Source of the DNA: Candidatus Woesearchaeota archaeon
GTDB taxonomy: Archaea > Nanobdellota > Nanobdellia > Woesearchaeales > CAZJJJ01
Direction of reading: 5' to 3'
DNA length: 53,764 nt
Assembly: GCA_046538795.1 (NCBI GenBank)
Contig: JBKHIF010000001.1
Location: 1-53,764, forward strand
Shown: positions 24,043 through 39,804 of the stretch, piece by piece
Position numbering within the stretch: position 1 is the first letter of the stretch
Layout of the letters: every line of letters starts with the position of its first letter
Notes under the pieces: generated by a model
Databases searched by the model: none
Told to the model about the DNA's origin: nothing
Seen by the model: the letters and a program-made list of their open reading frames with translations, nothing else
Made by a program: the position numbers and the translations under genes

Positions 24043-26745
24043 TTATTCTAATGGAACAAAATTCGGATCAAGAGAAAACCTTACAAGATTTTCTGCAGAT
24101 TCATAATCTTCAGGATTGCTAAGGCTGTTTATTACCCGCCCTTCTCCTCTTTCCGCCAGTACACCAAAGCAATATTTTCCACCATCATTAACATATCTTC
24201 CAAGTATTATATTGATAGAAGTCTCTTCAACATTATCATAGCTTCTGTACCTCATCATATTTTTGCCTACACCTGAAACATCGCAGGCCCCCATCTCATC
24301 TCCTTCATATTCGTAATAAAGTATCGTATAGCTTTCTGGTTCATCCAACAAATCCAGCTCTTCTCCATTTTCATAGGTCTGAGGGGGCATCCATGATAAA
24401 GTATCTCCTGTAAATGCAACCATAGAAACAGGCCCGTATTCCAGATCGTCTTTTATGATGTTTGAATTAAGCTCTTCAATCGTTATCATCTCATCAAGAG
24501 AATTAGAAAGCTTATTTCCGTTGCTGTCAACACCAACAATACCTATGAGATATTCTGTATCTTTTTGCAAAGGAAGCGAATAGAGATATTTTCCTGAATT
24601 TTCAAAAGAGTATGCAAGATCATCTTCAAAAGTCATCCCTTCAAATCTTGTATTTTCTGGATTAACCGGATACATGCAAATCATGTTTTCATAATCAAAA
24701 TCACAGTCAAATGAATAAGGCATGGATAAAAGAGCATTTTCTTCTGCTGATGAAAATTGTATGGTGACTTTATTAACATAATCTGAATAATCCATCTCAG
24801 TTGTACTCATCTCATTAAGATATTTAAGATTACCATCATCCAGCGTATTTCTCATAAGTTCTTCGACCATATCAACATCCTGATAATATATATCATAATG
24901 ATCAATATCTTCTGCAGGACTCTTGTCAAACATTATTATTGCAGAATCAGAATCCTTAGGCTTGTCGTAGAACCGTACTCCGGTTATCTTAGGCGGAGGA
25001 TCATCCCTGAAATAAAGAGCAAACTTATATTTTACAGGTTCATAAGCTGCCATATATTCTTCTCTTCCAAAAAGATATTCTGTAGAGAATAGTTCCTGAG
25101 AACTTTCTACGCAGAACCTATGAAAAAGCCTTTGTGATGAGCATTGGAGATCAGTCCTATCAACAACAGGATTGTTTTCTGAATCAGCTGGAGCAAAGCA
25201 CAGCGTCCCTGAATCAATCTTATAAAGCTTGTTCAAGAGAGGTCTTCGTCCAAACTGAGGGATCGATATTTCTCCATTAGAATTTCTGAGTATTATCTCA
25301 TCTGCATCAGTTACATATTCATCTTCTGCTCCGAAAAATTCTGCAAACCCACCCCTATTCCTGAAATAACACAGGTTAAGATTTCCTGAAGGATTAACGA
25401 TTTCTTTAGAAAATATATTTCCATCTCGTTCATATCTTAGGCGGATCATATCATTTCCAAACTTAGTGCCTTTCTCAAGAATAATCTCAGAATCTTCAGG
25501 AAGATTGTCTAAAGAAAGCCTGCAAAAACAAGATTCGCTCTGTTTGTCTGAATCAAGGCACAGCATGAAATCCTCGTAAAGCGTTTCAAGATATTCCTCA
25601 TCACTATTACATGAACCATAGTTCCATCTGTAATTGTAATCTGTATGTGGTTCGTCATCTGGATGTGCAGAAGGTATTTCATAAGAGCCAAATTCTTCGA
25701 TCATATCATCTATGCATATGTCAAGGTCTGGTTTTCCTGAACATTCCTCAACAAGGGCTTCTGCATCTTGTATTATTTGTTCATATTCGCTCAAGTCATA
25801 ATCAAGATATACTGAAAATGAAGGATTTATCTTATAAAGGCCAAACTGGCTTACGATGTCAGAGTATGAAGGTGATTCTCCTAGAATCTTTTTCGCCCAG
25901 AAAGAATAGAAAAGCTCAGATTTCTCAAGTATGGATTTCATATCTTCATATATATCAACATTCATTATGCCTTCCTGATGGATAAGCTTTCTTGAATACT
26001 CATCAAGATGAGATTCCCCATTGTTTAAGATCCGTTCCATATTTATGCTCCTTCTTTTAGGAAGATCATAAAGAATCTTGTCAGAAGTATCTTTGTCAGA
26101 AAAAAAAGCCGTGGTTATAAGGTAAAGATTTCCGTGATACTCTGAATAAAGACTCATCACATATCTTGCAGCAACCTCTATATTCTTTTCAGGATCAAAC
26201 CGGTCATCATATTCATCTGATTCAGGTTCTGGAGAACATCCCGGCTCAAAAGAACAGTCACCCTCTCTTTTTCCATTGGGAGAACAGCAAGAAACAATCT
26301 TTCCGAAAACATCACCAAATCTTTCTCTTTGGGAAATCTCCTCACTTAAGGGTATTATTCCTGCCCGTCCTATGTGTGAGATATAATCTTCATTGCCTTC
26401 TGAAGAAACAGATATAAATGTCTTTAGAAGATATATACATTCAGAACGCTCGTCAGGAGACGTGACAGCATCTGAACAAGAAGATGCTATAAGAGGACTG
26501 TATCTTTCTATCTCCTGCCTGGTTTCAACGCTCAGACCAAGGTCTTCCATTGTAGGTATCTCACTTACAGCATGCCCTGTAAGAAGGCTTCTTGAAAATC
26601 TATCAAGGTTCATATTTGAAAAAAGAGAAAATTCTCCTGCAACCATGAAAAAAAGGACAAGAGTAACTAAAAGATTAAAAGCAAAAACAATCTTTCCTGC
26701 TTTATTCCTTTTTTCCTCTTCTTTATTTATCCTTTTTAATCTCAT
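24043..26745 (-). CDS. Pilin-signal-anchored 900-aa surface protein with an SLT (GH23)-like lytic transglycosylase segment
   Basis: N-terminus MRLKRINKEEEKRNKAG-KIVFAFNLLVTLVLFFMV. Residues ~95-215 read VSSEGNEDYISHIGRAGIIPL ... DPEKNIEVAARYVMSLYSEYHGNLYLITTAFF, which resembles the SLT pattern ES..(S)..GA.GLMQ ... N...G..YL..L...Y.G. The rest is unrecognised. Confidence 0.6.
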   Translation of the reverse strand: MRLKRINKEEEKRNKAGKIVFAFNLLVTLVLFFMVAGEFSLFSNMNLDRFSRSLLTGHAVSEIPTMEDLGLSVETRQEIERYSPLIASSCSDAVTSPDERSECIYLLKTFISVSSEGNEDYISHIGRAGIIPLSEEISQRERFGDVFGKIVSCCSPNGKREGDCSFEPGCSPEPESDEYDDRFDPEKNIEVAARYVMSLYSEYHGNLYLITTAFFSDKDTSDKILYDLPKRRSINMERILNNGESHLDEYSRKLIHQEGIMNVDIYEDMKSILEKSELFYSFWAKKILGESPSYSDIVSQFGLYKINPSFSVYLDYDLSEYEQIIQDAEALVEECSGKPDLDICIDDMIEEFGSYEIPSAHPDDEPHTDYNYRWNYGSCNSDEEYLETLYEDFMLCLDSDKQSESCFCRLSLDNLPEDSEIILEKGTKFGNDMIRLRYERDGNIFSKEIVNPSGNLNLCYFRNRGGFAEFFGAEDEYVTDADEIILRNSNGEISIPQFGRRPLLNKLYKIDSGTLCFAPADSENNPVVDRTDLQCSSQRLFHRFCVESSQELFSTEYLFGREEYMAAYEPVKYKFALYFRDDPPPKITGVRFYDKPKDSDSAIIMFDKSPAEDIDHYDIYYQDVDMVEELMRNTLDDGNLKYLNEMSTTEMDYSDYVNKVTIQFSSAEENALLSMPYSFDCDFDYENMICMYPVNPENTRFEGMTFEDDLAYSFENSGKYLYSLPLQKDTEYLIGIVGVDSNGNKLSNSLDEMITIEELNSNIIKDDLEYGPVSMVAFTGDTLSWMPPQTYENGEELDLLDEPESYTILYYEYEGDEMGACDVSGVGKNMMRYRSYDNVEETSINIILGRYVNDGGKYCFGVLAERGEGRVINSLSNPEDYESAENLVRFSLDPNFVPLE

Positions 26746-26757
26746 CTCAAAACATCT

Positions 26758-27819
26758 CTACTTTTTTAGCAACCTGAATATTTTTTGTATGTTTTCTCTC
26801 GTATATCCCAGCTGCATCATATAACCGGATATCTGGTCTTTTGTATATCCTTGTCTGAAAAGCCCATCAACGTATCTGATCACAGGATCATCAAATATCT
26901 TCCTGCTTTGTTTTGAAAACATATAGCTTCCGCTTACAAAAAGCAGAGCAACTGAAAGTATGAACAAAAATATAAGCGCAAAATCAGAATAATCAGGACC
27001 ATAATCAACCTCTTCATAATGATAGGAACGCTTATAAGCAATTTTTTCTGCATCCTCTTTATTTTCAGGATTATCCCTTTCTTCTGCTTCTTCAAGAAGG
27101 ATCGCATCATTATCATTTTCTTCAGACACACATCTGCCTATGCAGCATTTTGTTCCAAAATCATCTGAGTATATATTTTCACCATCACATTCCTGATATA
27201 TAGTGCAGGGTTTTCCTCCCAAAGAATTGCATGAAATAAGATCATCTTCTTCTAAAAGAGAAATGCAGTCTTCATCACACCCACAATCAATATCTTTTTC
27301 CTCGCAATCAGGATCACATATCCCATCATCCTCTAGATCGCAATAATTATCACTTTCACCAGAATCACAGTCATCGCATGATGCAAAACTTTCTGAAAGA
27401 CTGCACCCAGAATCACTGCATGGCTCGCATATTCCGTCATTATCGCACAAATTTATCAACCTATAATCGCCAGAAAAACCATAACCTGTCCTGAAGTAAT
27501 AGATATCTGAAGAACTCTCATCGACATGAAATACCACTCTTCCTGAATCATCAATCTTTTCCGAGGAAATTAGCTCTTTTGAATCATCATAAAGAAGAAC
27601 AGGAATCCCTGTATTCAAAGAGTCTCCTTTGTAAAACTCCCGACTATAAAATTCATTCCAGCTAAAAGCATAATATTTCTCAACGTTCATATCAGAATCA
27701 AATTCAATGAATATATCAAGAGCAGAAGAAAAAGGAATAACCAACATCACAAGAGCAAGAGCTATTAAATAAAAACGGTTTTTATTTCTTTTAAATATTA
27801 AAAAAATTTTGTCTCTCAT
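26758..27819 (-). CDS. Cys/Asp-rich secreted protein with a C-terminal TM anchor and a small basic cytoplasmic domain
   Basis: N-terminal signal/anchor (YLIALALVMLVIPFSSA), a Cys/Asp cluster (CDNDGICEPCSDSGC...CDLEDDGICDPDCEEKDIDCGCDEDC), then the TM FALIFLFILSVALLFVSGSYMF and a ~55-aa tail. Confidence 0.7.
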   Translation of the reverse strand: MRDKIFLIFKRNKNRFYLIALALVMLVIPFSSALDIFIEFDSDMNVEKYYAFSWNEFYSREFYKGDSLNTGIPVLLYDDSKELISSEKIDDSGRVVFHVDESSSDIYYFRTGYGFSGDYRLINLCDNDGICEPCSDSGCSLSESFASCDDCDSGESDNYCDLEDDGICDPDCEEKDIDCGCDEDCISLLEEDDLISCNSLGGKPCTIYQECDGENIYSDDFGTKCCIGRCVSEENDNDAILLEEAEERDNPENKEDAEKIAYKRSYHYEEVDYGPDYSDFALIFLFILSVALLFVSGSYMFSKQSRKIFDDPVIRYVDGLFRQGYTKDQISGYMMQLGYTRENIQKIFRLLKK

Positions 27820-27844
27820 TTTGTCTTATTTTTTGTGTTTAGCC

Positions 27845-29806
27845 CTAACCTATTTCAAGGATATTTTCAATAGCAGATTCATAATATTCTCTCGAGCTAA
27901 GATCTTCTATGTCTGAATTATCTATAGCATTCTTAGAAAAAATTATCTCTGGAGTGAATCGCCTGAATTCAGCATCATAATAAAATTCCAGAGGATCAAC
28001 TGCTTTTTTCACAGGACCCACAACCCAGTCATAGCACCTGCTTCCCATAATTTTCTCATTATCTGAACCATCCTTGTGAATTTCAAAATAAAATGCCCCT
28101 ATATCTGTTCCTGGAAAAACACCAGCCTCAGCAATCCTTCTTCCAGAAAGAATTATTTCTCCTGGTTCGACAAATATATTTTCTGCAAAATAATATCTTG
28201 ATACAAATCCATTATTATGATCTATCTCTATGATATTTGCCTGAGCATATTTTTCATCTATTTCAGCGCCCTCATATGTCAGTGATTCTTCTCCTGCACG
28301 AATGACCCTTCCTCCGGAAACTGCATATATATTATCCCCCACATCTGAACCAAGCATCAAACCTGGAAAAAATTCAAGATCATTTCCTGAATTCCCGCAC
28401 CTTGTCATGCCAAAAAGATTTATTACATTAAGATGAGATTGTTTCATTGAATCCAGAGGATAATATGATACCCAGTTATTATTTTCATTCTCAAGAAGAA
28501 CGCCTTTGTAAGGATCAAAGTCCGGATCAAACACTCTTCCTTTTATCTTAATGATAATTCCTCCTCTCTTCTGCCAGGCAGGTTCAAGAAGATCTCTTGA
28601 AAGAATTATATTATTTCCCACATCATTTGATGCCCCCTTTGTATAAGGATCATTTGCGATAACATAATTTTCTCCTGCATAAAGAATCACCAGATAATGT
28701 CCTCCTGTACAGTATGTCCTGTCAAGAACATCAATATCTTCTTCACACAAGCCAGCAAGCTCCTGATTTTGCAAAAGCAACACAGGACCCTGAGAAACTG
28801 CATATATCAAATCATCCCATGCCACATCATGGCTAACTTCTGCAACAAGATTTTTGCTTTCTGCAAATTTCTGCAATGTATCAGGATCATATCCATCTTT
28901 AGAGAAACAAGTGCCGTCCCCATTCTTGTTAAAAAAAAACCAGTTATCAGCAGGCACTCCGTAATATTCTAAAACCATGTTCATCGCTGTAGGTCCGCAG
29001 CCAGAAGAGCATAATGTTCCTACTTCATCTGTATCGCATGAAACCTCATATTCCTTTACATCAGAATCACCGCATTGATTAATAAAAGGCACAAGAGGCA
29101 CACCGTTCATCAAGGCATCTTCAGGACATGGGCCTCTGCAACATGAACCACTGCATTCATATCCATCCTGATCACGCACTTCATCTGCAATTAAATTACA
29201 GTAATTGCAAAGATTGCTTGTTTTTCCGCTCATGCCCGCTCCTTTGTTCCTTCCAATATCATATTCCATATCAGAATCAGTTGTTCCTATGACCTTGAGC
29301 TTATCTCCTGTATCTATGACAGAATAATCAAACCTTGCAGGCATATCCCTGTTGTATGCAATCGAATATTTGTAAATGATTGAATTAATCTGCGCCCTGA
29401 AATTATCGTCAAAATTATCTAATGGGTCGCAGGTCTTTTCCTGATCTTTTAAGATGTTGTAATCAAGATATTTTCCGCAAGGGGAATCATCTGCAAAGCC
29501 GCTTTTTTCTGCAAGGGAAAGAAAAGATTGCGCTGCTGAATATTTCACAGACTGATCAAGATAAAAAAGATCCTGTTCAGCCCTGTTTGAAGTAAGGATA
29601 AGATTAATCTGCTTTTCTCCTATATAAAGCGCAGGATCTATTGTTGATTTTTCTCTTTCGCTCCATTGCTTGAACATTGAGTAAGACATAAGTCCTGCAA
29701 TAAGCGAAAAAAGCATGAAAAGAGACAATGTCATGAGCATATTATCTCCTTTTTTATTTCCAAACATTCTCTTTTTTGTTTCAAACATCTTATACATTTT
29801 AATCAT
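27845..29806 (-). CDS. Pilin-signal protein with a papain-like (Peptidase_C39_2-type) domain and a degenerate M23/LytM-like domain
   Basis: N-terminus ..MFGNKKG-DNMLMTLSLFMLFSLIAGLM. C39-like motifs are CGPTAMNMVLEYYG, TGGHYLVILYAG and IANDP. An M23-like beta-core (IIEIDHNNGFVSRYYFAENIFVEPGEII) lacks the expected HxxxD and HxH metal ligands (FPGLML and FYFEIH instead). Confidence 0.65.
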   Translation of the reverse strand: MIKMYKMFETKKRMFGNKKGDNMLMTLSLFMLFSLIAGLMSYSMFKQWSEREKSTIDPALYIGEKQINLILTSNRAEQDLFYLDQSVKYSAAQSFLSLAEKSGFADDSPCGKYLDYNILKDQEKTCDPLDNFDDNFRAQINSIIYKYSIAYNRDMPARFDYSVIDTGDKLKVIGTTDSDMEYDIGRNKGAGMSGKTSNLCNYCNLIADEVRDQDGYECSGSCCRGPCPEDALMNGVPLVPFINQCGDSDVKEYEVSCDTDEVGTLCSSGCGPTAMNMVLEYYGVPADNWFFFNKNGDGTCFSKDGYDPDTLQKFAESKNLVAEVSHDVAWDDLIYAVSQGPVLLLQNQELAGLCEEDIDVLDRTYCTGGHYLVILYAGENYVIANDPYTKGASNDVGNNIILSRDLLEPAWQKRGGIIIKIKGRVFDPDFDPYKGVLLENENNNWVSYYPLDSMKQSHLNVINLFGMTRCGNSGNDLEFFPGLMLGSDVGDNIYAVSGGRVIRAGEESLTYEGAEIDEKYAQANIIEIDHNNGFVSRYYFAENIFVEPGEIILSGRRIAEAGVFPGTDIGAFYFEIHKDGSDNEKIMGSRCYDWVVGPVKKAVDPLEFYYDAEFRRFTPEIIFSKNAIDNSDIEDLSSREYYESAIENILEIG

Positions 29807-29841
29807 TTATCATGTTAATTTTTTATCATATTAAGATCGTA

Positions 29842-30456
29842 TTATTCTGACGCCATGTCAACCCCATAAAGTTGTATGATAAATGTTTTTTCATGTGGTG
29901 ATGGTATTATCTGGCTTGCAAGAATCCCTGATGAACGCCTCTTCGCTTTCCTAAGATCATTTTCATCAAAAGGAGATATATAGACAATATTGCTGTCATC
30001 ATCAATCCTTATGTCTGCTGCAGTTCCTGAAAGTATGGCAAGAGAAATATCTCTTCCACGCACCGCAGTCACCTTGATATACCATGATTTCTGTCCATAA
30101 GACAATGATTCGTCAAAATAATCTACTGTCTTTCGTATAAATTCATCATAATATTCTGGCCTCTCATAAGATGGATTTTCGACCCCGCGTATATTCTTTC
30201 CTATAAGATAAAAATTTGACATAGCGATATAATCCGCATAGTTCATGTCATCTTTGAATCTGCTCCTGAGATAATTCAGCAAGAACAATTCCTTATCTAT
30301 TCTATCAAGCTTTGAATCAACATTTATATCTGCCTGAACAGTCTTTATCTTCTGCACCACAAAAGCAGCCAGAAATATTACAAGCATTATTACAACAACC
30401 CCCACAAAAATCCAAATTTCTGCAAGTCCTGCTTTTTTTGACCTTGAATATCTCAT
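29842..30456 (-). CDS. Pilin-like (class III signal) protein, 204 aa
   Basis: MRYSRSKKAG-LAEIWIFVGVVVIMLVIFLAAFVV. The ATG overlaps the upstream stop (ATGA). Confidence 0.7.
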   Translation of the reverse strand: MRYSRSKKAGLAEIWIFVGVVVIMLVIFLAAFVVQKIKTVQADINVDSKLDRIDKELFLLNYLRSRFKDDMNYADYIAMSNFYLIGKNIRGVENPSYERPEYYDEFIRKTVDYFDESLSYGQKSWYIKVTAVRGRDISLAILSGTAADIRIDDDSNIVYISPFDENDLRKAKRRSSGILASQIIPSPHEKTFIIQLYGVDMASE

Positions 30457-31004
30457 TTTGCCTCAAAATAACCTTCTGTCGTATCTAAATTTACTGTTAC
30501 TGATTTTACCTCGATAATAAATTTTCCTTCTGCAGGTGATGATGGATCATCATCAATCAAAAGTACCTTTATCACTGGCCTCTGATTTATTTCCTGAGAG
30601 CTCTTATTCCAGTTTGAAGTTGAAAGTTCTATCCTTTGATCAAGAGTTTCTGAAACAAGCGATATCCTGAATGCATAATTAACAGAATCCAGCCTGAAAC
30701 ATTCATCAAGGTTTTGTTGGTTAAATTTATCAAGATCTATTATTCCTGGATATGCCCTGTTAACCTCATCACGATATACGAAACACGAAGGAGAAGATAT
30801 AAGCCTCTGCGAAAGTATGCTTTCCTCTACATCTTCATTCATCTTATATTTTTCACCAGTATCTACAGATACAAGAACTACAAACATGGCTGCTGTTATG
30901 CTTAAAGATAAAAAAAGAAATATTATGTGCATAGTGTCTTCTGCAATAGTTCCTTTTTTATTACTAAATACAGACTTCCTGAAAATTAGACTAATTCCGC
31001 TCAC
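30453..31004 (-). CDS. Pilin-like (class III signal) protein, 183 aa
   Basis: ..FSNKKG-TIAEDTMHIIFLFLSLSITAAMFVVLV. The only start that retains the signal is GTG at 31004. It overlaps the upstream gene by 14 nt. Confidence 0.65.
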   Translation of the reverse strand: MSGISLIFRKSVFSNKKGTIAEDTMHIIFLFLSLSITAAMFVVLVSVDTGEKYKMNEDVEESILSQRLISSPSCFVYRDEVNRAYPGIIDLDKFNQQNLDECFRLDSVNYAFRISLVSETLDQRIELSTSNWNKSSQEINQRPVIKVLLIDDDPSSPAEGKFIIEVKSVTVNLDTTEGYFEAK

Positions 31005-32001
31005 CTGATTCTCCCATCACTGCTTTGTATATTTTTTCTGCAACTTCACCGTACCTGAAATAAAGATTGTCAGAATATTGTGAATTTATATTTCCTAATT
31101 CAAGAACAATAACATTCGTCCCATAAGACATCGGATAAAGTTCGCTTTCTTCAGATATCCTTGATCGGTCCACAAATTTAAGCGCAGATTTGGTTACATA
31201 ATCCAGTTCACCTGCACTTTCTGCAATGTTGCATGCAAGATTACGAGTTTCATCGCCTCCTGAATAAACATAAACCTCATTTGACATAAAATCGTTTTGT
31301 GAACCAAAACGAAGCACAATAGTAAGATCATAATTCTCTGCAAGATTCCTGTAGTCTGATTCAAAGATAGTTGAACCATCAATCATCCTTGCATTTATTT
31401 CATCTCTTGAAAAAAGACCAAACAAATATTCAGATATTTCTTCTGTATATGATTTTTCTGACACAGATATTGCATTTTCCTCAGGATCTGCTATGACTGC
31501 ATCCTTGTTATCAGAAGACACAAGCAAAATATTTTCCAGGACAACATTATGTCTTGAGCATGAAGGTGTGTTCTTGAAATCTTCCTGGCCTTCGCTGTAA
31601 TATATCTTTCCTGACTGTTTTGTTATGAATATCGTATCAAGTTCAGAAAAAAATGCATCTATATCTTCTCTGTCCTGGCCATAGGCATATCTAACTTCAG
31701 TATCCTCTTCTGGATCAACAATGACCCAGCCAGATCCAATATTGATAAAATAATTCCCTACATCTTCCTTATATGTCATTATAGCGTTTCCCGGAACAGA
31801 ATAAAGAGCATCATTGATTAATGCAAGTTCTCTTGCAACATACATTTTCTGGAATATTTCGCCTGTTGCATATTCCTTTCCCACGCTTATGAAAAGAAAA
31901 GATATAAGGACACCAAGCAGGAAAGAAGCTATGGTAAGTATTACCATCCTGGGACCTGAAAGAGCGCTTGCTCTTTTTTGTTTAAGAAAATAAACACACA
32001 T
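30991..32001 (-). CDS. N-terminally anchored (pilin-like) protein, 336 aa
   Basis: MCVYFLKQKRAS-ALSGPRMVILTIASFLLGVLISFLF. ATG start. Confidence 0.65.
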   Translation of the reverse strand: MCVYFLKQKRASALSGPRMVILTIASFLLGVLISFLFISVGKEYATGEIFQKMYVARELALINDALYSVPGNAIMTYKEDVGNYFINIGSGWVIVDPEEDTEVRYAYGQDREDIDAFFSELDTIFITKQSGKIYYSEGQEDFKNTPSCSRHNVVLENILLVSSDNKDAVIADPEENAISVSEKSYTEEISEYLFGLFSRDEINARMIDGSTIFESDYRNLAENYDLTIVLRFGSQNDFMSNEVYVYSGGDETRNLACNIAESAGELDYVTKSALKFVDRSRISEESELYPMSYGTNVIVLELGNINSQYSDNLYFRYGEVAEKIYKAVMGESGERN

Positions 32002-32087
32002 AGAGTATTTTTAGAGAAACGTGTTTATAAAATTAATGCCTTTGAAAAAAATAATCATCTAAAATATCCTGTAATTGTAGCAAAATA

Positions 32088-32870
32088 CTAATCTTCTTCA
32101 TCAGGGGATAAGACGATATTTTCATCTTCATCCCAGTACATATCCTGAAAATTCCTGCACGCGTCATAATCAGGACAGATAAACACTTCATTGCCATGCT
32201 TGTATATCGAAACTGAAAATGCACCACCTGAATTTCCATTGGTTATTCCTGAATCAATAACAACTCCTTTCTGCTGTTCATCGTCAATAGTAAATATATT
32301 GACTGGAGGATTAGTAATATTAATCTCATCTTGGAGCTGGCTGCATTCTCTTACTGAATATTTTGATCTGCAGTTCCTGTTCCCGCCTTCAATAAGCCTT
32401 GAAAGAGGAAACCCTCTTGTCTCTGTTACAAGAAAATTTTTAAGTTCGCATGATATCTTGTTGAACTTTTTTTCTCTTTCATCATAATCTCTCATGAGGC
32501 ATGCGCATGTCTTTGTCATGTCTAAATTGCAGTTTTCCGGCCTTTCAAAAGTTATCAAATGGTTGCCTTCATTTCTGAAAAATCTAAGTTCAAGAATGTC
32601 TGTCCCTGAATTGAAAAAAACAAGCGCACTTTTGTCCACAAGAATAATTGAACCTGAATCCAATTGATCTTGGGATAAAGAATCAAGTTTTGAAAGAAGA
32701 CTGTTATAGCTGCTTATGCTTTTTTGATCAGTTTGATAACCAACATATTTGAATACTCCAAAAACTATTGAAATAAATACAACTACTGAAAGTATAAAAA
32801 CCACAAGATTTTCAAGAACCAAAATAGTTCCTTTTTTCGATTTATTGAAAGTGCTTAATCCATACTCCAT
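32088..32870 (-). CDS. Pilin-like (class III signal) protein, ~260 aa
   Basis: MEYGLSTFNKSKKG-TILVLENLVVFILSVVVFISIVF. ATG at 32870 is preferred over the TTG at 32888. Confidence 0.7.
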   Translation of the reverse strand: MEYGLSTFNKSKKGTILVLENLVVFILSVVVFISIVFGVFKYVGYQTDQKSISSYNSLLSKLDSLSQDQLDSGSIILVDKSALVFFNSGTDILELRFFRNEGNHLITFERPENCNLDMTKTCACLMRDYDEREKKFNKISCELKNFLVTETRGFPLSRLIEGGNRNCRSKYSVRECSQLQDEINITNPPVNIFTIDDEQQKGVVIDSGITNGNSGGAFSVSIYKHGNEVFICPDYDACRNFQDMYWDEDENIVLSPDEED

Positions 32871-33124
32871 TTGCCTGCACCAGGACAATCAGGATTGTCA
32901 ACCTGTTGTTCTTTAGGAGGATTTGGGCCCTTGCAGGGATCTATAAGATCAACCACATTATCCCCATCCTTGTCTTTTGCATTGTTTATACTGTTTTGAA
33001 ATTCATCTGTTCCGTCCCCCATTCCACGAATAAAAATTACAAGAAGAACAGTCATTACAATCAAAAGTAATGCTGCTGAAACGATTATCGGCATTGTCAT
33101 CTCAAATCCTTTTTTTGATTTCAT
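32855..33124 (-). CDS. Small pilin-like protein (~89 aa) with a TSP3-like Ca-binding loop
   Basis: MKSKKG-FEMTMPIIVSAALLLIVMTVLLVIF. GGTGAT lies 5 nt upstream of ATG 33124. The C-terminal part DKDGDNVVDLIDPC resembles a thrombospondin type-3 repeat. Confidence 0.75.
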   Translation of the reverse strand: MKSKKGFEMTMPIIVSAALLLIVMTVLLVIFIRGMGDGTDEFQNSINNAKDKDGDNVVDLIDPCKGPNPPKEQQVDNPDCPGAGKWSMD

Positions 33125-33143
33125 GAATATCACCATCTAAATT

Positions 33144-34934
33144 TTAATTCAATATGCTTGTAAAAAAACTTTTCTGATTTTCTGAACATAATCTGTTCTC
33201 AAGATATGGACCAAGTTCTGAAAATTCAATGCCCGGCCATAATTGCGGCACAGGAGAAACTGAATAACTGTCAGATTCTTTGCGTATAACATAAAGAGAT
33301 TTCCCCTGAAGACTTCCTTCAAAATAATCCTCAAACCATGCAACATTATTTCCTCCCCCTGCCTTATTTGCCGGAGAAACTTTATTCTGCATTGCAAATG
33401 TTCTTTTCTCTATATGATGGCATCCTTCAACAGTAAATGCAAAACTAAATTCATCTTCCCAGGGAAGAGCAATCCTAAAACGATTCTCAAGAGCAAAATA
33501 ATCTTTCATCTCATTGCCCTTTGCATATATCAGATTATTTCCTGAAGGAAGCATTGTGTTGAATCCGACATTATCACAGCCAGAACCATCATTATTGATA
33601 TAGATGTGTTCGTTTCCTGTTTCGATTACCGGAAGAGAATCATGAACAAAAATACACCACTCACCATTTTCTAAAGAATTTACTTTATGATCTGCACCAA
33701 AATTATCAATAAATTCAAGGCTTGTTAAGCTTTGTACATTTTCAATAAACTGCTTTATTTCATCTTTCAGAGTATAACATGTTCCATCATCTAAATTCCA
33801 GACACATTCAAACCCAGCATCAGAGAATGTGCCATTAAGCCTTTGACAAGTATCTTCAGAAAGGGCATCTTCACAGGAATTCTGATCAAGCTCGATCATA
33901 TAGCAGCCTTCTTCCTCATCCCATGCGCAGATCTCTTTGCTGGTTTCTATAAAACCACAATAGTTCTCATTTAGAACTGCCTTGCAGATATTGTCATATA
34001 TTCCTGAAGACATTCTGATAAATGGAGATATATCCAATCCCTCCATATCAACAAGTCCTGAATCATCGCAAAGATCAAACTCTTCTCTCGATATAGTATC
34101 CCTGAATAGGTTCAGATCTGCATTATCGATGTCAAACGATGAAAGTCCTGCTTCATATATCACTGAAATATCTTGGGAAAAATCAAGATCATCGATTATT
34201 TTGTCTGTTACAAAAAAATTAATATCTCCCTGAGAATCATAGTATATTGGTATCCAGGGAATCATATATCGATTTCTCGATGCAAACATGCCAGATATTC
34301 TCATAAGAAAATAATCCTCTCCGTCAATCCTTATGTTATATGTCGGTTTTCCTGAAAAATAGGAGGCATAATGAATGTTAGAAACATCTACTCTTGAAGG
34401 GGTCAAGAAGAAATTTTTTGTGTCAGAATCAATGTCTGAAGCAAGATCATACATATATCTTCCATCATTTTTTGACCCTGGTCTGAAAAGATTAAATTTT
34501 CTTGAAAATGATTCGACCTGAGGATTCTGCGATCCAATGATTGTAATAATTGTTCTTCTACTGTTCTTTGTTATCTCATAAGAATATTCACTGTCAGAAA
34601 AATCAGGAATAAAAGCTATGCAATTTCTGTAATTATTTTCATTTTCAAAAACATCAAACAATATGCTCTTTGCCTCATCGAAATCCAATCCCGGATCGGA
34701 GTCATCCTGAAGAGCCTCTTCATATTCTCGATCCACAAGATGACGCTCTTTCATCGCATCCTGGAAATCTTTATCTGCTTTTTCATTAAAAGATACAATA
34801 AGCTCATTCAAAGCTCCTGATCCAAAAACCATAATTACAATAACAACTGTAAACACAAGTATAGCAGCAATTACAGGGGTGAGTACATAGGAAACACCTT
34901 TCTTATTATATATACTATTATCCATGATTTTCAT
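33144..34934 (-). CDS. Large pilin-like protein (~596 aa)
   Basis: MKIMDNSIYNKKG-VSYVLTPVIAAILVFTVVIVIMVF, which resembles the archaeal pilin N-terminal motif (G-VSPVIATVLL). It has a Cys-rich central region. The track start at 34946 is TTG, so ATG 34934 is used. Confidence 0.75.
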   Translation of the reverse strand: MKIMDNSIYNKKGVSYVLTPVIAAILVFTVVIVIMVFGSGALNELIVSFNEKADKDFQDAMKERHLVDREYEEALQDDSDPGLDFDEAKSILFDVFENENNYRNCIAFIPDFSDSEYSYEITKNSRRTIITIIGSQNPQVESFSRKFNLFRPGSKNDGRYMYDLASDIDSDTKNFFLTPSRVDVSNIHYASYFSGKPTYNIRIDGEDYFLMRISGMFASRNRYMIPWIPIYYDSQGDINFFVTDKIIDDLDFSQDISVIYEAGLSSFDIDNADLNLFRDTISREEFDLCDDSGLVDMEGLDISPFIRMSSGIYDNICKAVLNENYCGFIETSKEICAWDEEEGCYMIELDQNSCEDALSEDTCQRLNGTFSDAGFECVWNLDDGTCYTLKDEIKQFIENVQSLTSLEFIDNFGADHKVNSLENGEWCIFVHDSLPVIETGNEHIYINNDGSGCDNVGFNTMLPSGNNLIYAKGNEMKDYFALENRFRIALPWEDEFSFAFTVEGCHHIEKRTFAMQNKVSPANKAGGGNNVAWFEDYFEGSLQGKSLYVIRKESDSYSVSPVPQLWPGIEFSELGPYLENRLCSENQKSFFTSILN

Positions 34935-34939
34935 CTCAA

Positions 34940-35095
34940 TTACCAAATCCTGAAAAATGCTTTGACTTTATCAAAAAGGCTTGTTCCAAAAATAGACAAT
35001 ATTATTATTCCTATGGTTAAAGCAAAAAGTATCAATATTATCTTTCCGAGATTCTCCATGATAAAATTTCCTTTTTTGGATTTTATTGTTTTCAT
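34940..35095 (-). CDS. Mini pilin-like protein, 51 aa (not in the ORF track)
   Basis: Hand-translated: MKTIKSKKGNFIMENLGKIILILFALTIGIIILSIFGTSLFDKVKAFFRIW. It has the same KSKKG-hydrophobic N-terminus as its neighbours and fills the gap between 34934 and 35106. Confidence 0.6.
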   Translation of the reverse strand: MKTIKSKKGNFIMENLGKIILILFALTIGIIILSIFGTSLFDKVKAFFRIW

Positions 35096-35105
35096 CTTTA
35101 CCATT

Positions 35106-36194
35106 TCAACCTTTCATACGTATTACTTCACATTCGTTTTCAATATCTTCAAGCTTCCCAATCATTATAAGAGACGACTTTGGATCTTCAGGATCAAACT
35201 CAAAATCCTTCAAAGCATCTTCATTCATGCCGTATGGATTATACTGGTTATAAAGATTAGCGCTTGACTCGCTTAATGGTTCAGGTATCCTTATTGCAAT
35301 CGCATATTGTGTTCCGCTATTAAAACCCTGATTTCCCACATTCTGGACAAGAAGGAGACCATCTTCATATCCATGTTCAGCTACATATTCAAAATATGTA
35401 TACGACTTATCTTTTTTAACACAGCACACATCATCTTTATCGCAAGTAAATTCAAAAGAACTTGTGTATTTTCTAAGGCCGTCAGGGCAATTATCTCCCT
35501 TGGATATGCATTCCCCCCCATTCATCTCACAGTTGTTTCGTCTTACATAATCCAACCCTGAAGAGCAATCTGGATCTTCTGAATCGATATATCCGTCATC
35601 GTCATCATCTATACCATTATTGCAGTAAGACTCCCTTAATTCAGGCTCAACCATATAAAGATTCTCGTACAGAAAAAGCTGAAGTGAAGAATGATCAAAT
35701 ATAGTATCGCCAGATCTTTTATAACCTGGCTGGCCGTAATTGCTCTCCTCGATTGATTTAGCTATGCCCGCATCATCTATGGTGAATATATAGCAGACAT
35801 GGCATTCATCTCCCCAATAATCTTTAAGCGTATCTTCATACAATCCCTCGCCAAACATATACCAGCACTTGACAGCATAATCACCTATGTTTCCCATTAT
35901 GCCTTCTATACTCATTTCATGAAGATCATCAGGTATTTCTCGTTCATAGCTGAAGCACTGAAGAGGGACTATCTTTTGTTCTCCTATAAGTCCGCCCGGC
36001 TTGCCGGGATCAATAGTATATTCATCTCTTGCAAAGACACTTACCCTGCATATTTCCTCCTGGCCTTTTTCCTGGACATTATCAGTAGTAAATATGGCAA
36101 ACCCTGACAAGACAAACATACTGCCAAGTATGAGAATTATAGTTACAAGTTTCTTAAGCGTCATATCTCCTTTCTTATTAGGGAAGCATAGCAT
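35106..36194 (-). CDS. Pilin-like protein (362 aa) with a MopE-like Asp-rich motif and a C-terminal CExxGGxC Cys module
   Basis: MLCFPNKKG-DMTLKKLVTIILILGSMFVLSGF. Motifs YCNNGIDDDDDGYIDSEDPDC and NCEMNGGECISKGDNCPDG...CDKDDVCC. Confidence 0.7.
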   Translation of the reverse strand: MLCFPNKKGDMTLKKLVTIILILGSMFVLSGFAIFTTDNVQEKGQEEICRVSVFARDEYTIDPGKPGGLIGEQKIVPLQCFSYEREIPDDLHEMSIEGIMGNIGDYAVKCWYMFGEGLYEDTLKDYWGDECHVCYIFTIDDAGIAKSIEESNYGQPGYKRSGDTIFDHSSLQLFLYENLYMVEPELRESYCNNGIDDDDDGYIDSEDPDCSSGLDYVRRNNCEMNGGECISKGDNCPDGLRKYTSSFEFTCDKDDVCCVKKDKSYTYFEYVAEHGYEDGLLLVQNVGNQGFNSGTQYAIAIRIPEPLSESSANLYNQYNPYGMNEDALKDFEFDPEDPKSSLIMIGKLEDIENECEVIRMKG

Positions 36195-36291
36195 TTTTTA
36201 TCTTGATATAAAGAACTGCAAAGGCAACACCGACTGTTATAAGTGTTAATATCAGTATAGCTATAAACTTAATATCTGCCTTCTTGTTCAT
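36178..36291 (-). CDS. Mini pilin-like / single-TM peptide, 37 aa (not in the ORF track)
   Basis: Hand-translated: MNKKADIKFIAILILTLITVGVAFAVLYIKIKNAMLP. Its N-terminus MNKKAD matches the neighbour's MNNKKAD. It overlaps the start of 35106..36194 by 17 nt in another frame. Confidence 0.45.
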   Translation of the reverse strand: MNKKADIKFIAILILTLITVGVAFAVLYIKIKNAMLP

Positions 36292-36355
36292 GAGAAATTA
36301 TATAAGAAGTTGGGTATATAAAGTTTTTGAAAGAAAAAGATAAGAAAAACAAGAT

Positions 36356-36634
36356 TTAGCCGTCGCTTTCTTGGTTATCATCTTTATTCAGATTTATGCA
36401 GCAAACAGGTGTTGCATCACTGCATTCTGCGTTTATCTTGACAGAGGGCCAATCACAGGTTGCTTCACTCTGGCATGTTCCGCCTCTTGCTTCACAGCTA
36501 TCCTGCTCATTACTGAAGTTGAGCATCTTCTGTCCAAATATCGCAATAAGTATGATCATGACAAGAAGAGCAACAGCTGCAACAACAATTATATTTATGC
36601 TCATGCCCTGTGCTTTCTTATCTTTCATATTCAT
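36356..36634 (-). CDS. Small Cys-rich pilin-like protein (~92 aa), paralog of 36639..36935
   Basis: MNMKDKKAQG-MSINIIVVAAVALLVMIILIAIF, then SCEARGGTCQSEATC...C..VCC. The start is trimmed to ATG 36634, 4 nt after the upstream stop. Confidence 0.75.
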   Translation of the reverse strand: MNMKDKKAQGMSINIIVVAAVALLVMIILIAIFGQKMLNFSNEQDSCEARGGTCQSEATCDWPSVKINAECSDATPVCCINLNKDDNQESDG

Positions 36635-36638
36635 CAAC

Positions 36639-36935
36639 CTAGACAATGATGCAGCACTGCTCGTCATCATTAGGTTCGCCATTCATCCTGTAACAGACCA
36701 GATCATTTCGTCTCCTTCCTGTTGAAGATGGGCCATTTTCACTCTTTGCAATTGCATCGCACGAACCTCTTCCCAGATCAAAGCACTGCCCTCCTGCAGA
36801 TTCACAGGATTTTGCTTGAATATTAAATATGTTAAGCCTCCCCATAAAAATCAATGAGACTGTAACAAGAACAAGCAATGCAAGCGCTGCAATAATGATA
36901 AAATTCATGCTTAAATCAGCTTTCTTATTATTCAT
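36639..36935 (-). CDS. Small Cys-rich pilin-like protein (~98 aa); major-pilin candidate
   Basis: MNNKKAD-LSMNFIIIAALALLVLVTVSLIF, then SCESAGGQCFDLGRGSC...QCC. GAGGTG lies 7 nt upstream of ATG 36935. The track start at 36944 is GTG. Confidence 0.75.
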   Translation of the reverse strand: MNNKKADLSMNFIIIAALALLVLVTVSLIFMGRLNIFNIQAKSCESAGGQCFDLGRGSCDAIAKSENGPSSTGRRRNDLVCYRMNGEPNDDEQCCIIV

Positions 36936-36984
36936 GAAAGACACCTCTTGATGATGATTATCAAGTAGATAATTATCTTACTCC

Positions 36985-36993
36985 TATATAAAA
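36985..36993 (-). promoter_or_regulatory. TATA-box-like element in the only sizeable intergenic gap of the pilin array
   Basis: The minus strand reads TTTTATATA, ~50 nt upstream of ATG 36935, within the 119-nt gap 36936-37054. Confidence 0.35.
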
Positions 36994-37054
36994 TTTTTCA
37001 TATGGCAAGCGTAGTAAAAACAGTTTTTGATAAATGTTCTGACGTTGTGTGCTA

Positions 37055-37606
37055 TCAGTTGCATATCCAGGTCTCTATCACAAGAGTATTAGGATACAAA
37101 GGAAGAGGATGCCTATCCACCTTTCTTTCCTGCATAGGACACAAATCATCTACTGACTGCTGATCTGATGATGCAAACATCAAATCAGGTATCATATCTC
37201 CGTTTACAGACATGTTTATGAAATATTTTCTGTTCCAGACGCGAAGAGTATCTTCAAGTATCAGGTTTATGGTTTGGGAAGCGTACAAGCAGGAACTTTC
37301 GCCATTTTCACAATTTATCCTTGGATCATCAGGGTTTTTTGCGCAATCGACCAATAGATCTCCTATGTCAAGGTCATTGCAGTCTCTGGTCCTTGTGTTT
37401 ATTATTGCATTTATAGTATTACTTGCAAGCTCTGATTTCTGATAGCTCTGCCTTATTTCAGTTGGCCTGTTGTCAAGTTCTGATTTTATTACAAGAACCA
37501 ATGCGACAGATATAAGCATGACTATAAAAAGAAGTCCAAATACTTCTGCCTGAGCCTTTCTGCTTTTCTCTTCTTTTTTAAGCTGTTTGGTATTTTTTTT
37601 CGCCAT
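37055..37606 (-). CDS. Pilin-like (class III signal) protein, 183 aa
   Basis: ..KKEEKSRKAQ-AEVFGLLFIVMLISVALVLV, with 6 Cys in the mature part. Confidence 0.7.
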   Translation of the reverse strand: MAKKNTKQLKKEEKSRKAQAEVFGLLFIVMLISVALVLVIKSELDNRPTEIRQSYQKSELASNTINAIINTRTRDCNDLDIGDLLVDCAKNPDDPRINCENGESSCLYASQTINLILEDTLRVWNRKYFINMSVNGDMIPDLMFASSDQQSVDDLCPMQERKVDRHPLPLYPNTLVIETWICN

Positions 37607-37624
37607 GTTGAATATCTGAATATC

Positions 37625-38155
37625 TCACACTATACTTTTTCCAGGTTCATAATATAGGACTTCCATGTATCCAAAATAATAAGCCTTTTCTCTTGAATCA
37701 TATACAGATAATGGGAGCTGGATTGCGATTTGCGAAGTCTCTTCAAGCTCATTTTCATATAAAATCCAGGATCTTTGGTTTGGATATACTTCAGTAATAG
37801 TAATCATGCTATACCTGAAATAAGGATAATAATATTCCTGATTTTGTCTTAATATATCTTCAGCAGCTTCAACTTTCAGGAAATCAACGCAATTTTCTTT
37901 TTTTACATTATTGAAGCTGCATGCAACCTCAGGCAGGGTTGAAAAAATCTGGGCAAGCTGGACAGTCTCCCTGCTTGTCTGTTCTGACTGTATGTTCTGT
38001 ACATTGCCTTTTTGCCATCTCACATAAAAAACAAGACCAAATATAAGAAGGATAAGAAATATAAAAAGCACCATTATGGTCTCGCCCATCTTGATGTCCT
38101 GTGCTTTTTTACTGATGTTGAATATTTTATAATGATCTTTTTTCATCCATATCAT
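37625..38155 (-). CDS. Pilin-like (class III signal) protein, 176 aa
   Basis: ..FNISKKAQ-DIKMGETIMVLFIFLILLIFGLVF. Confidence 0.7.
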   Translation of the reverse strand: MIWMKKDHYKIFNISKKAQDIKMGETIMVLFIFLILLIFGLVFYVRWQKGNVQNIQSEQTSRETVQLAQIFSTLPEVACSFNNVKKENCVDFLKVEAAEDILRQNQEYYYPYFRYSMITITEVYPNQRSWILYENELEETSQIAIQLPLSVYDSREKAYYFGYMEVLYYEPGKSIV

Positions 38156-38159
38156 CTTC

Positions 38160-39260
38160 TCAATAGATTACATCACAGCTTTTTATCTGTGCTTCCTGGT
38201 TCTGATCTTTTAAGCTTTCTGCATAGCTTATCATGTTTGCATATTCATCCATATAATCTCCTGAATTCATGATTTCATAAGAAGATTCATTTATATCCCT
38301 GAATATGTTTCGTGCAGCACTATATACGCTTGAACACGCAGGATCATGCTCTATTGTACGATAATATACCTGCATATCTATTATTTTTTCCCAAAATACA
38401 TTGTTTATGTAATTAAGCCTCCTGAAAGCCTTTCTCATATTGCAGTCATAATACTCTTTTGTATCTGAAAATACTGCCCCGAAAAGCGATGCAGAACCCA
38501 GGTAATATGATTCAGCAAAAGCATTTGATCCAGAATCTATTATTTCCGCTTCATAAAATCTCAACTCTCCGTTTTCATAAGGCGCATCAGAAAAAAAGGG
38601 AATGATCGAAATCGCTGATACCTTATTTCCCTTATCAAGAAACTCCTCTCTCAAAAAAGCAAGATCATTTGCTTGAACACCCATGCTAAGATAAATGACC
38701 CGTGTATTCATGTCATTCAAATTATAGATATCTCCAATATCAGTATAATAATCAGCAGTAAAATGATTTGGAATAGTATCATTGATATATTCCTTCAAAA
38801 CCACTGACCCAGCATTACCTTCATCATACAAGAAAATATAACGTGATTGTGTTGACGAGATAAATAGAAAATTCATGATGCTGTACGGAAGATTCCAGTT
38901 ATATGACCAGGTGACAAGATTCTGACCTTTAAGTTCCATAGGAGCAAAAGTAACATCTGACGATATCTGTGTTGTAAGTCCTGACACCTCATAGACAGAA
39001 TATCCTGAATCTTCACATATAAAATTAATTTCTATGTCAGAAGTCCTTATGAGTGAAGAAGTGCCTGAACCCAGCCTTGCTCCTTCAAATATAGATGCAA
39101 GGTTTTCTTTCACTCTTGCATTTATCGCAACAGTTGCAGAAGATTTTTGCCTTACTGCCATCATTGTAAAAAAACCAAGTATCACAGCACCGGCTACAAG
39201 AATGAATATCCAATTAAACTGCACAGTTATCTGAGCTTTTTTTCTTGATTCAAAGATCAT
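38160..39260 (-). CDS. Pilin-like (class III signal) protein, 366 aa
   Basis: MIFESRKKAQ-ITVQFNWIFILVAGAVILGFFTMMAV. Confidence 0.7.
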   Translation of the reverse strand: MIFESRKKAQITVQFNWIFILVAGAVILGFFTMMAVRQKSSATVAINARVKENLASIFEGARLGSGTSSLIRTSDIEINFICEDSGYSVYEVSGLTTQISSDVTFAPMELKGQNLVTWSYNWNLPYSIMNFLFISSTQSRYIFLYDEGNAGSVVLKEYINDTIPNHFTADYYTDIGDIYNLNDMNTRVIYLSMGVQANDLAFLREEFLDKGNKVSAISIIPFFSDAPYENGELRFYEAEIIDSGSNAFAESYYLGSASLFGAVFSDTKEYYDCNMRKAFRRLNYINNVFWEKIIDMQVYYRTIEHDPACSSVYSAARNIFRDINESSYEIMNSGDYMDEYANMISYAESLKDQNQEAQIKSCDVIY

Positions 39261-39279
39261 GGTAAAATCACACGATTAA

Positions 39280-39804
39280 TCAGGAAAAGCTTATGATTGC
39301 CTTGTTGCCTCTTCCTTCAGCCCAAAATACAACCCTCGAGCGCTTCTCATCAATACACACATATCCACCCTCAATCTCAATCTTATCTACATGAAAAGAT
39401 GCACCTGCATATCTGTCAACAAGAAATACATTTCTTCCTTCAGGACCCATCCACCCCTGTGAATCTTTCCAGTAATTATAGATCACAGGATATTTGCTTT
39501 TAAAAGAAGTATCAGATATCTCATCAGGATGTTTTCCAAGATCTATTATGCATAACTTGTCAAAATTTCCCGGCATCAAAAGGTTTATCTCTTTTCTTGA
39601 TCTGTATTCCTGGGTTATAGCATCAATCTCATTTTGAAGAGTATTTTTAAATTTCACATAATTGATATCGTTTCCCTGTTTCATGACTCCGCCGATTATT
39701 TTTGAACCAAAAAAAACGACAAAACCGATCATAAATAAAGTCATCACCATCATAAGAACATGAGACTGCGGCTGTCCTTTCCTGTTTTTAAATAAAAGCA
39801 TCAT
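39280..39804 (-). CDS. Pilin-like (class III signal) protein, 174 aa
   Basis: MMLLFKNRKGQ-PQSHVLMMVMTLFMIGFVVFF. The ATG overlaps the TGA stop of the 2063-aa gene (ATGA), implying translational coupling. Confidence 0.7.
   Translation of the reverse strand: MMLLFKNRKGQPQSHVLMMVMTLFMIGFVVFFGSKIIGGVMKQGNDINYVKFKNTLQNEIDAITQEYRSRKEINLLMPGNFDKLCIIDLGKHPDEISDTSFKSKYPVIYNYWKDSQGWMGPEGRNVFLVDRYAGASFHVDKIEIEGGYVCIDEKRSRVVFWAEGRGNKAIISFS

Follow-up and report, generated by a model that had tools for sequence, protein, structure and literature searches.

A putative cysteine peptidase joined to a degenerate LytM domain behind a pilin-like N-terminal module in a Woesearchaeota genome

The window analysed here, a 53.8-kb stretch of DNA from Candidatus Woesearchaeota (positions 1 to 53,764 of contig JBKHIF010000001.1), carries on its reverse strand a gene at 27845-29806 that encodes a protein of 653 amino acids (aa), counted from the first ATG. 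This protein joins a C39-like domain, which keeps all four residues of a papain-like catalytic site, to a C-terminal LytM/M23 domain in which all five catalytic and zinc positions are replaced, and both stand behind an N-terminal module (N-module) with a pilin-like start. With a probability that we place somewhat above even, the protein would be a surface-displayed murein peptidase, in which the cysteine peptidase would be the sole catalytic module and the dead LytM domain would be kept for binding or regulation.

The NCBI annotation of this open reading frame (ORF) is a protein of 647 aa (MFP4111383.1) from a Candidatus Woesearchaeota metagenome-assembled genome (MAG), named "peptidoglycan DD-metalloendopeptidase family protein", a name that is misleading given that the metal site is gone. 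Identical or near-identical copies of the protein occur in NCBI Woesearchaeota MAGs, and the window holds genes of archaeal character (GatD/GatE, Cdc48, TruD, RPA, and RadA). An exhaustive HMMER search with the 653-aa protein against 1.84 billion cluster representatives gave 348 relatives, each a protein cluster at 50% identity, and these relatives split the protein into three separable modules: the N-module, the C39-like module, and the M23 module with its tail. The count of N-module relatives given below comes from the 149 listed matches outside the query's own cluster. Word-indexed homology searches with the full protein, with a four-sequence profile, and with the L003 fragment described below returned only their own clusters, while back-translated pattern scans of genome and metagenome contigs gave no confirmed further relatives combining C39 and M23. 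Proteins with both domains were found in three lineages, namely the query cluster, the protein P0005, and the L003 fragment, two of them as full-length proteins.

Residue states of the two enzyme-type domains

The C39-like domain matches PF13529 (Peptidase_C39_2) with 38.9 bits against a curated cut-off of 24, with aa 239-388 covering profile positions 3-143 of 143, and the C-terminal domain matches PF01551 (Peptidase_M23) with 39.6 bits against 28.7 over aa 482-581. Both families had been proposed in an earlier reading made from the letters of the window (the sequence-only reading), and all the motifs quoted there were located in the protein at the positions given for them. Those of the C39-like domain lie at aa 270-283 (CGPTAMNMVLEYYG), aa 367-378 (TGGHYLVILYAG), and aa 383-387 (IANDP). 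The papain-like triad seen in them is intact, with Gln244, Cys270, His370, and Asp386 all in place, and the model of the domain takes a papain fold. In an AlphaFold2 (AF2) model of the C39-like domain alone (predicted local distance difference test, pLDDT, 85.4; predicted template modelling score, pTM, 0.86), a helix begins at C270. The near-invariance of the catalytic residues in the family argues for retained catalysis, and the domain, judged by its residues and predicted fold, looks active.

What had been described as a Cys-rich linker is instead a nearly invariant extension of the C39-like domain in its family (CxYC..C..CC...CP..QC), modelled with pLDDT 88-96. Four homologues lack both Cys245 and Cys266; this joint loss suggests a disulfide, and a C245-C266 bridge probably spans the inserted loop of the domain.

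In a Foldseek search of the PDB, the best match of the C39-like model was 3erv (E 3.6e-7, template modelling score, TM, 0.52/0.61, 21% identity), a putative C39-like peptidase of Bacillus anthracis that belongs to the same Pfam family; compared with it, the archaeal domain has an additional ~50 aa of Cys-rich sequence at its N-terminus, and a further loop is inserted. Matches of papain-type fold (3erv, PCAT1, ComA, staphopain, and papain) had Foldseek probabilities of 0.98-1.00. Among viral structures in BFVD, the domain matched endolysins, mycobacteriophage Lysin A, phi29-type wall hydrolases, and lytic domains of tape-measure proteins. The partner domains found in the C39-like family are Glucosaminidase, NAGPA, SLT, Amidase_3, CHAP, and M15_4, and C39_2 is named among the enzymatic domains of phage lysins (10.1101/2021.02.23.432618). 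The intact residues, the fold, the lysin neighbours, and this domain company point to a disulfide-rich cysteine peptidase that would carry out the hydrolysis, and its target would be a peptide or amide bond in the stem peptides or cross-links of bacterial murein, as for the structurally similar phage-lysin domains. The literature on the function of YvpB, 3erv, and BtrH gave nothing usable.

The other structural matches bear on two further substrates. Matches to the peptidase domains of PCAT1, LahT, and ComA (TM 0.44-0.49), together with the many secreted proteins encoded nearby, are in line with a processing protease that matures the neighbouring Cys-rich or pilin-like secreted proteins and does not act on murein. 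Nonetheless, the canonical C39 family PF03412 scores 12.8 bits against a cut-off of 22, no ABC transporter domain is present in the protein or its neighbours, the closest structure is the C39_2-type 3erv, the viral neighbours are lysins, and the partner domains of the family are murein enzymes; we regard a processing role as very unlikely. The second and third best PDB matches were both the pseudomurein endoisopeptidase PeiR (E 2e-5 and 4e-5), which would fit an isopeptidase directed at the wall of a methanogen host instead of bacterial murein. These matches, however, are modest in TM (0.44-0.46) and in identity (14-16%), no Pei-type family was matched in Pfam at E <= 1 by the 653-aa protein, and all the associated domains (SLT, Amidase_2/3, M15, M23, M74, NlpC/P60, and YkuD) are of bacterial murein enzyme families. 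We give a pseudomurein target a very low probability.

The C-terminal domain is, by its residues, a pseudoenzyme. Its motifs are FPGLML (aa 480-485), NIYAVSGGRVIRAG (aa 492-505), IIEIDHNN... (aa 525-552), and AFYFEIHKDG (aa 571-580), and in two independent alignments the five catalytic and zinc positions are occupied by F480, M484, F540, F572, and F574, in agreement with the degeneracy proposed earlier. When HMMER was run against PDB sequences, the EnvC LytM domain was among the top matches (FPGLML/WKGMVI, YYFAEN/YGYNQS, and AFYFEI/SLYFEI); the MAFFT alignment comprised intact archaeal relatives, the EnvC fragment from the PDB-HMMER match, and a LytM sequence. The best fold match of the M23 region in Foldseek was again the EnvC LytM domain, followed by DipM, LytM, lysostaphin, and ShyA, with a probability of 1.00 for EnvC, LytM, lysostaphin, and ShyA; EnvC and DipM are the closest solved relatives. 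H530 and H577 were considered as substitute metal ligands and rejected, given that they lie off the ligand positions and are Q and Y in L003.

P0005 (L001 10001-11983, 660 aa), on a 939-kb contig, is the positional orthologue of the window protein and the sole full-length homologue with both domains that was found. It retains HYGVD, YLH, and HLHFE, which line up position by position with active M23 peptidases of solved structure, and through it the first His of HxH is seen to correspond to H247 of a solved M23 peptidase (6jn1, a H247A mutant). In P0005 the M23 domain is intact and the C39 nucleophile has changed from Cys to Ser, the only such change in 36 segments; in the window protein the two states are reversed. 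This reciprocal inactivation of the two heads, read from the sequences of two full-length proteins, is only a pattern.

The third protein lies on the 1.3-kb contig L003, where its ORF is open at the contig edge and starts in the C39 C-terminal helix (SREYLEAAW), with the position of the nucleophile off the contig. Its LytM domain is also dead (SPGIL / YHD / LYLE), it is 35% identical to the query, and the two dead domains share PG, GD.xY, IEI, RY, Y.EI, AVDPL.FY, and FTPE. The JGI name for this fragment is 'MepM / activator NlpD'. The dead LytM domain is kept, then, in at least two deeply diverged lineages, and given that these are only 35% identical, we infer a binding or regulatory role for it. 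Under the favoured reading of a surface murein peptidase, it would either bind peptide stems, and so target the peptidase to which it is fused, or regulate that peptidase, as this retention and the analogy with bacterial degenerate LytM domains suggest.

The N-terminal module and its family

The pilin-like start noted in the sequence-only reading is present as KKG followed by a hydrophobic helix, and a [KR]K[GA] motif with a helix is found in 12 of the 16 consecutive genes from 24043 to 39804. Of the 120 N-module relatives listed, 105 have [NSG]KK[AGS] ahead of the helix, and most of the exceptions resemble mis-called starts. The motif fits an archaeal class III (prepilin-type) signal, although the N-terminus could instead be a plain signal anchor. 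Delivery through the pilin pathway, as proposed in the sequence-only reading, would follow from the signal motif only; no prepilin peptidase (PibD/EppA type), assembly ATPase, or platform gene is found within the 53.8-kb window. From the motif and the family, we infer that the KKG-helix N-module would provide export and anchoring in the membrane or a filament, and that it would put the protein outside the cell, by class III processing or as a signal anchor.

The globular part of the N-module (~150 aa) has the consensus IGExQ..AEK.LFYIDQSAKYSA..GGF..CG.Y.GY..W..C.P, and with the KK[GA] motif and the helix the module spans 29237-29779 on the reverse strand; its relatives are among clusters P0005-P0153. 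The N-module profile had no match in Pfam or among PDB sequences, and Foldseek with the full-length model gave M23 matches only and none for the N-module. The module is present in at least 120 protein clusters (120 of the 149 listed matches, the query's own cluster excluded), whose named members are mostly Woesearchaeota or Nanoarchaeia. At their C-termini, 59 longer proteins with the N-module carry SLT (13), Peptidase_M15/VanY (11), M23 (5), and M74 (4), and more rarely NlpC/P60 (3), M15_4 (3), YkuD (2), phage lysozyme (2), and Amidase_2 (1); further N-module proteins bear a C39-like domain, Amidase_3, CHAP, Glucosaminidase, or NAGPA. Altogether the module is joined to at least 10 peptidoglycan-enzyme families, and its C-terminal partners are almost only such enzymes. 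Given these partners, it appears to be a lineage-specific carrier of murein hydrolase domains. One C39-like protein without the N-module, P0017, is annotated as from a candidate division KSB1 bacterium.

Table 1. Features of the gene, its protein, and its neighbours in the window
Feature	Position (nt)	Strand	Evidence or remark
Whole gene: N-module, Cys-rich C39-like domain, degenerate LytM/M23, acidic tail	27845..29806	-	ORF list, Pfam, NCBI copies
Modules: N-module, ~aa 10-195; C39-like module, aa 196-425; M23 module with tail, aa 437-653			HMMER
GNKKG motif, aa 16-20	29747..29761	-	Candidate class III (prepilin-type) cleavage site, K-K-G just before helix
Hydrophobic helix, aa 23-41	29684..29740	-	Kyte-Doolittle mean 2.04 (best 19-aa window); within modelled helix 19-53
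N-module globular part, aa 42-190; IGEKQ..AEQDLFYLDQSVKYSA..CG..C.P	29237..29683	-	pLDDT about 90
Cys-rich extension and C39_2-like papain-fold domain, aa 196-425	28532..29221	-	PF13529, AF2, Foldseek, BFVD
Gln244, putative oxyanion-hole Gln (NQC motif)	29075..29077	-	Q in 34 of 36 family segments
Cys270, predicted nucleophile (GC/GPTA, helix N-terminus)	28997..28999	-	C in 35 of 36; Ser only in P0005
His370, predicted catalytic His (GGHY)	28697..28699	-	H in 36 of 36; invariant in a further alignment
Asp386, predicted third triad member (NDP)	28649..28651	-	D in 34 of 36, E in 2
Degenerate LytM/M23 core, aa 482-581	28064..28363	-	PF01551; EnvC LytM among best matches; pLDDT 81-96
F480-P-G-L-M484 at HxxxD zinc-ligand site	28355..28369	-	PDB-HMMER and MAFFT alignments
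F540 at catalytic His site (LytM H260 position)	28187..28189	-	MAFFT alignment
F572-Y-F574 at HxH site	28085..28093	-	PDB-HMMER and MAFFT alignments
C-terminal insertion and acidic tail, aa 582-653	27848..28063	-	Alignments; Cys591 and Cys470 shared with L003; AVDPLEFYY and FTPE conserved
353-aa Cys- and acidic-rich protein, signal-like N-terminus, C-terminal membrane helix	26758..27819	-	Syntenic
900-aa SLT-like protein	24043..26745	-	PF01464 23.5 bits against 21.3, partial; 27% identity to L001 SLT and M23 protein
Upstream run of [KR]K[GA] and hydrophobic helix genes (pilin-like cluster)	29842..39804	-	Likewise in L001, L002, L004, and L007

The locus, its neighbours, and the weight of the alternatives

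The gene order of the window recurs in L001, where pilin-like small genes, the 660-aa protein, a Cys-/acidic-rich membrane protein, and an SLT protein of ~1000 aa are followed by RPA, DUF362/ferredoxin, RadA, and TRAM, as in the window. P0008, with the N-module and a C39-like domain, occupies the same slot ahead of RPA and RadA in L004, and P0006, of the same composition, is directly followed by an SLT protein in L002. In L001 and L002, too, the gene is linked to one of SLT type.

The SLT-like protein of the window has Ser114 (nt 26404-26406) at the position of the catalytic Glu, GIIP for GLMQ, and AFFSD for AYNAG. This Glu is present in the SLT sequences of L001, L002, P0035, P0041, and P0023 and in Slt70; the L001 counterpart keeps the Glu and has an extra intact M23 domain. 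E116, two residues past the lost Glu, is unlikely as a substitute, given that this position varies between E, S, K, G, and R in active relatives. The sequence-only reading had proposed a wall-processing pair made of the 653-aa protein and its SLT-like neighbour. The synteny of the two genes holds across genomes, which supports the pair in part, but an enzymatic pair is doubtful in the window genome given that the neighbour lacks the catalytic Glu.

Between these two genes lies the 353-aa protein, whose core is 51% identical to the L001 neighbour (L001 12037-13386) and which is also found downstream in L003 (754-1293). This Cys-/Asp/Glu-rich neighbour (CDNDGICEPC...YCDLE.DGICDPDC; small cytoplasmic tail) always stands beside the C39/M23 gene and matches no Pfam family. 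Within the upstream cluster, a KKG-helix protein (35106-36194, reverse strand) matches the NCBIfam 'acidic double-disulfide repeat' with 31.9 bits, below the cut-off of 41, and disulfide-rich acidic repeats seem recurrent across the locus. Further upstream, beyond the pilin-like cluster, the reverse strand encodes two giant proteins predicted to be at the surface: one of 2063 aa (39801-45992) has 198 Cys and a signal peptide and matches nothing in Pfam, and one of 2530 aa (46046-53638) has CarboxypepD_reg and Big_13-type domains. Elsewhere in the window, a patatin-like phospholipase (7788-8627, forward strand) shows weak similarity, far under the cut-offs, to phospholipase models of CBASS/anti-phage systems. 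From 10000 to 53764 the GC skew stays negative throughout (-0.09 to -0.25), in step with the placing of almost every gene on the reverse strand.

LytM regulators of the degenerate kind are familiar from bacteria. EnvC, NlpD, ActS, and DipM are like the query in having a LytM fold with the zinc ligands and the catalytic His replaced, and the substitutions of EnvC are close to those of the query (WKGMV for FPGLM, LYFE for FYFE). An activator of EnvC/NlpD/DipM type, in which the dead LytM domain would switch on a separate hydrolase, be it the SLT-like neighbour, in the way that DipM acts with lytic transglycosylases, or an amidase elsewhere, would be in line with the EnvC and DipM LytM domains being among the best sequence and fold matches, with the weak matches to the NCBIfam models of ActS, NlpD, DipM, and EnvC, and with the conserved linkage to the SLT gene. 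However, the NCBIfam scores of 17-26 bits are far under the equivalog cut-offs of 270-740, and the SLT-like neighbour lacks the catalytic Glu, GLMQ, and AYNAG. A regulatory role of EnvC/NlpD type finds no partner here: no Amidase_3 or Amidase_2 gene or other partner is present within the window. Pfam detects no coiled coil or LysM domain, as found in EnvC and NlpD, in the 653-aa protein, and the M23 domain of the L001 orthologue is intact, which indicates that its ancestral role was catalytic. Compared with the bacterial proteins, the query is archaeal, combines its LytM domain with a cysteine peptidase that looks active and with a pilin-type N-module, has no FtsEX context, and derives from a family in which an active M23 domain is otherwise retained. 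An activator in trans is therefore less likely than a surface murein peptidase, and we consider it unlikely.

Several observations count against a surface murein peptidase. Two of the three murein-type domains of the locus, M23 and SLT, are degenerate in the window genome, and the locus may for this reason have moved from hydrolysis towards binding. The full-length AF2 model has a pTM of 0.34 with a poor C39 region, which allows no inference on contacts between the domains. In L007 (GCA_964570475.1, CAZMYC010000001.1), the sole close relative, the locus is nearly base-for-base identical to the window: the 650-aa protein differs by a single aa, the 900-aa protein is unchanged, and it follows that the same population was sampled twice; the per-domain ratio of nonsynonymous to synonymous substitution rates (dN/dS) against it is uninformative, with one aa change and no synonymous change in 650 codons, and selection on the dead M23 domain is consequently not measurable. 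No well-characterised murein-cleaving member of C39_2 was found in the literature searched, and one archaeal C39-like protein was reported to be a weak glycosidase without peptidase activity (PMC13642728).

The degeneration of two of the three domains would also fit an adhesin built from pseudoenzymes, binding the wall of a host or prey by lectin-like attachment with the peptidase at most accessory. The position of the locus in a pilin-like cluster beside giant Cys-rich surface proteins and the typically episymbiotic life of DPANN archaea (PMC9723730) are in line with this. Nonetheless, all four catalytic residues of the C39-like domain are kept and are almost invariant in the family, and an adhesin is, in our judgement, quite unlikely. 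A surface murein peptidase remains the reading that we favour.

Relation to known systems and significance

Bifunctional endolysins and autolysins that combine a cysteine peptidase with M23 or an amidase resemble the 653-aa protein in their modular papain-fold and M23 composition, and one of their domains is often silent. The query, by contrast, is encoded on an archaeal chromosome, in a pilin-like locus that is conserved, and it has no classical wall-binding domain; its M23 domain is dead by sequence and not merely weak, and its orthologue is inactivated the opposite way.

Archaeal peptidoglycan hydrolases of bacterial origin have been proposed to act on bacteria, murein transglycosylases being known in Woesearchaeota (PMC12352652, PMC9723730), and M23 homologues have been reported in Nanoarchaeia (PMC12352652). 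Woldo/Danwoldo (Halogranum) and the 'large lytic murein transglycosylases' of Woesearchaeota share with the query the presence of bacterial-type murein hydrolase domains in archaea. The described archaeal hydrolases carry Sec/Tat signals and PG_binding_1 domains, whereas the query combines an N-module of KK[GA]-helix type with a C39_2-like domain and a dead M23 domain, none of which is mentioned in PMC12352652 or PMC9723730. In the PLoS Biology study, 68% of archaeal hydrolases had no recognised signal, and the N-module may account for some of these. Class III signals are known on non-pilin cargo (10.64898/2026.04.22.720090), and such cargo (bindosome sugar-binding proteins and minor pilins) is like the query in having a basic and a small residue before the helix, a large ectodomain, and a pilin-like gene run. 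Unlike this cargo, the query carries wall-hydrolase domains and has no assembly genes nearby, and its residues past the putative cleavage site (DNML after G) look atypical, by eye only. No description of an archaeal degenerate LytM domain, of a C39_2 and M23 fusion, or of murein hydrolases carried by the N-module was found in the literature.

The locus bears on how DPANN archaea make physical contact with their partners and on whether some of them are predators of bacteria, and for one lineage it suggests an answer, in the form of a shared pilin-type N-module carrying many kinds of murein enzyme. Haloarchaeal peptidoglycan hydrolases have been shown to kill bacteria in published work. Given that either head of this two-headed hydrolase has been inactivated, the family offers a natural experiment on the role of a dead LytM domain without an amidase partner. 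It is possible, if doubtful, that the N-module of Woesearchaeota and Nanoarchaeia is a dedicated delivery module on which an arsenal of wall hydrolases is mounted, and that reciprocal inactivation in sister lineages has given rise to the first archaeal degenerate LytM domain acting within its own protein. If this were true, SLT, M15, M23, M74, NlpC/P60, YkuD, amidase, and C39-like enzymes would be displayed, at the cell surface or along a type IV-like filament, for breaching or gripping partner bacteria, and the degenerate LytM domain would serve as an intramolecular targeting or regulatory module.

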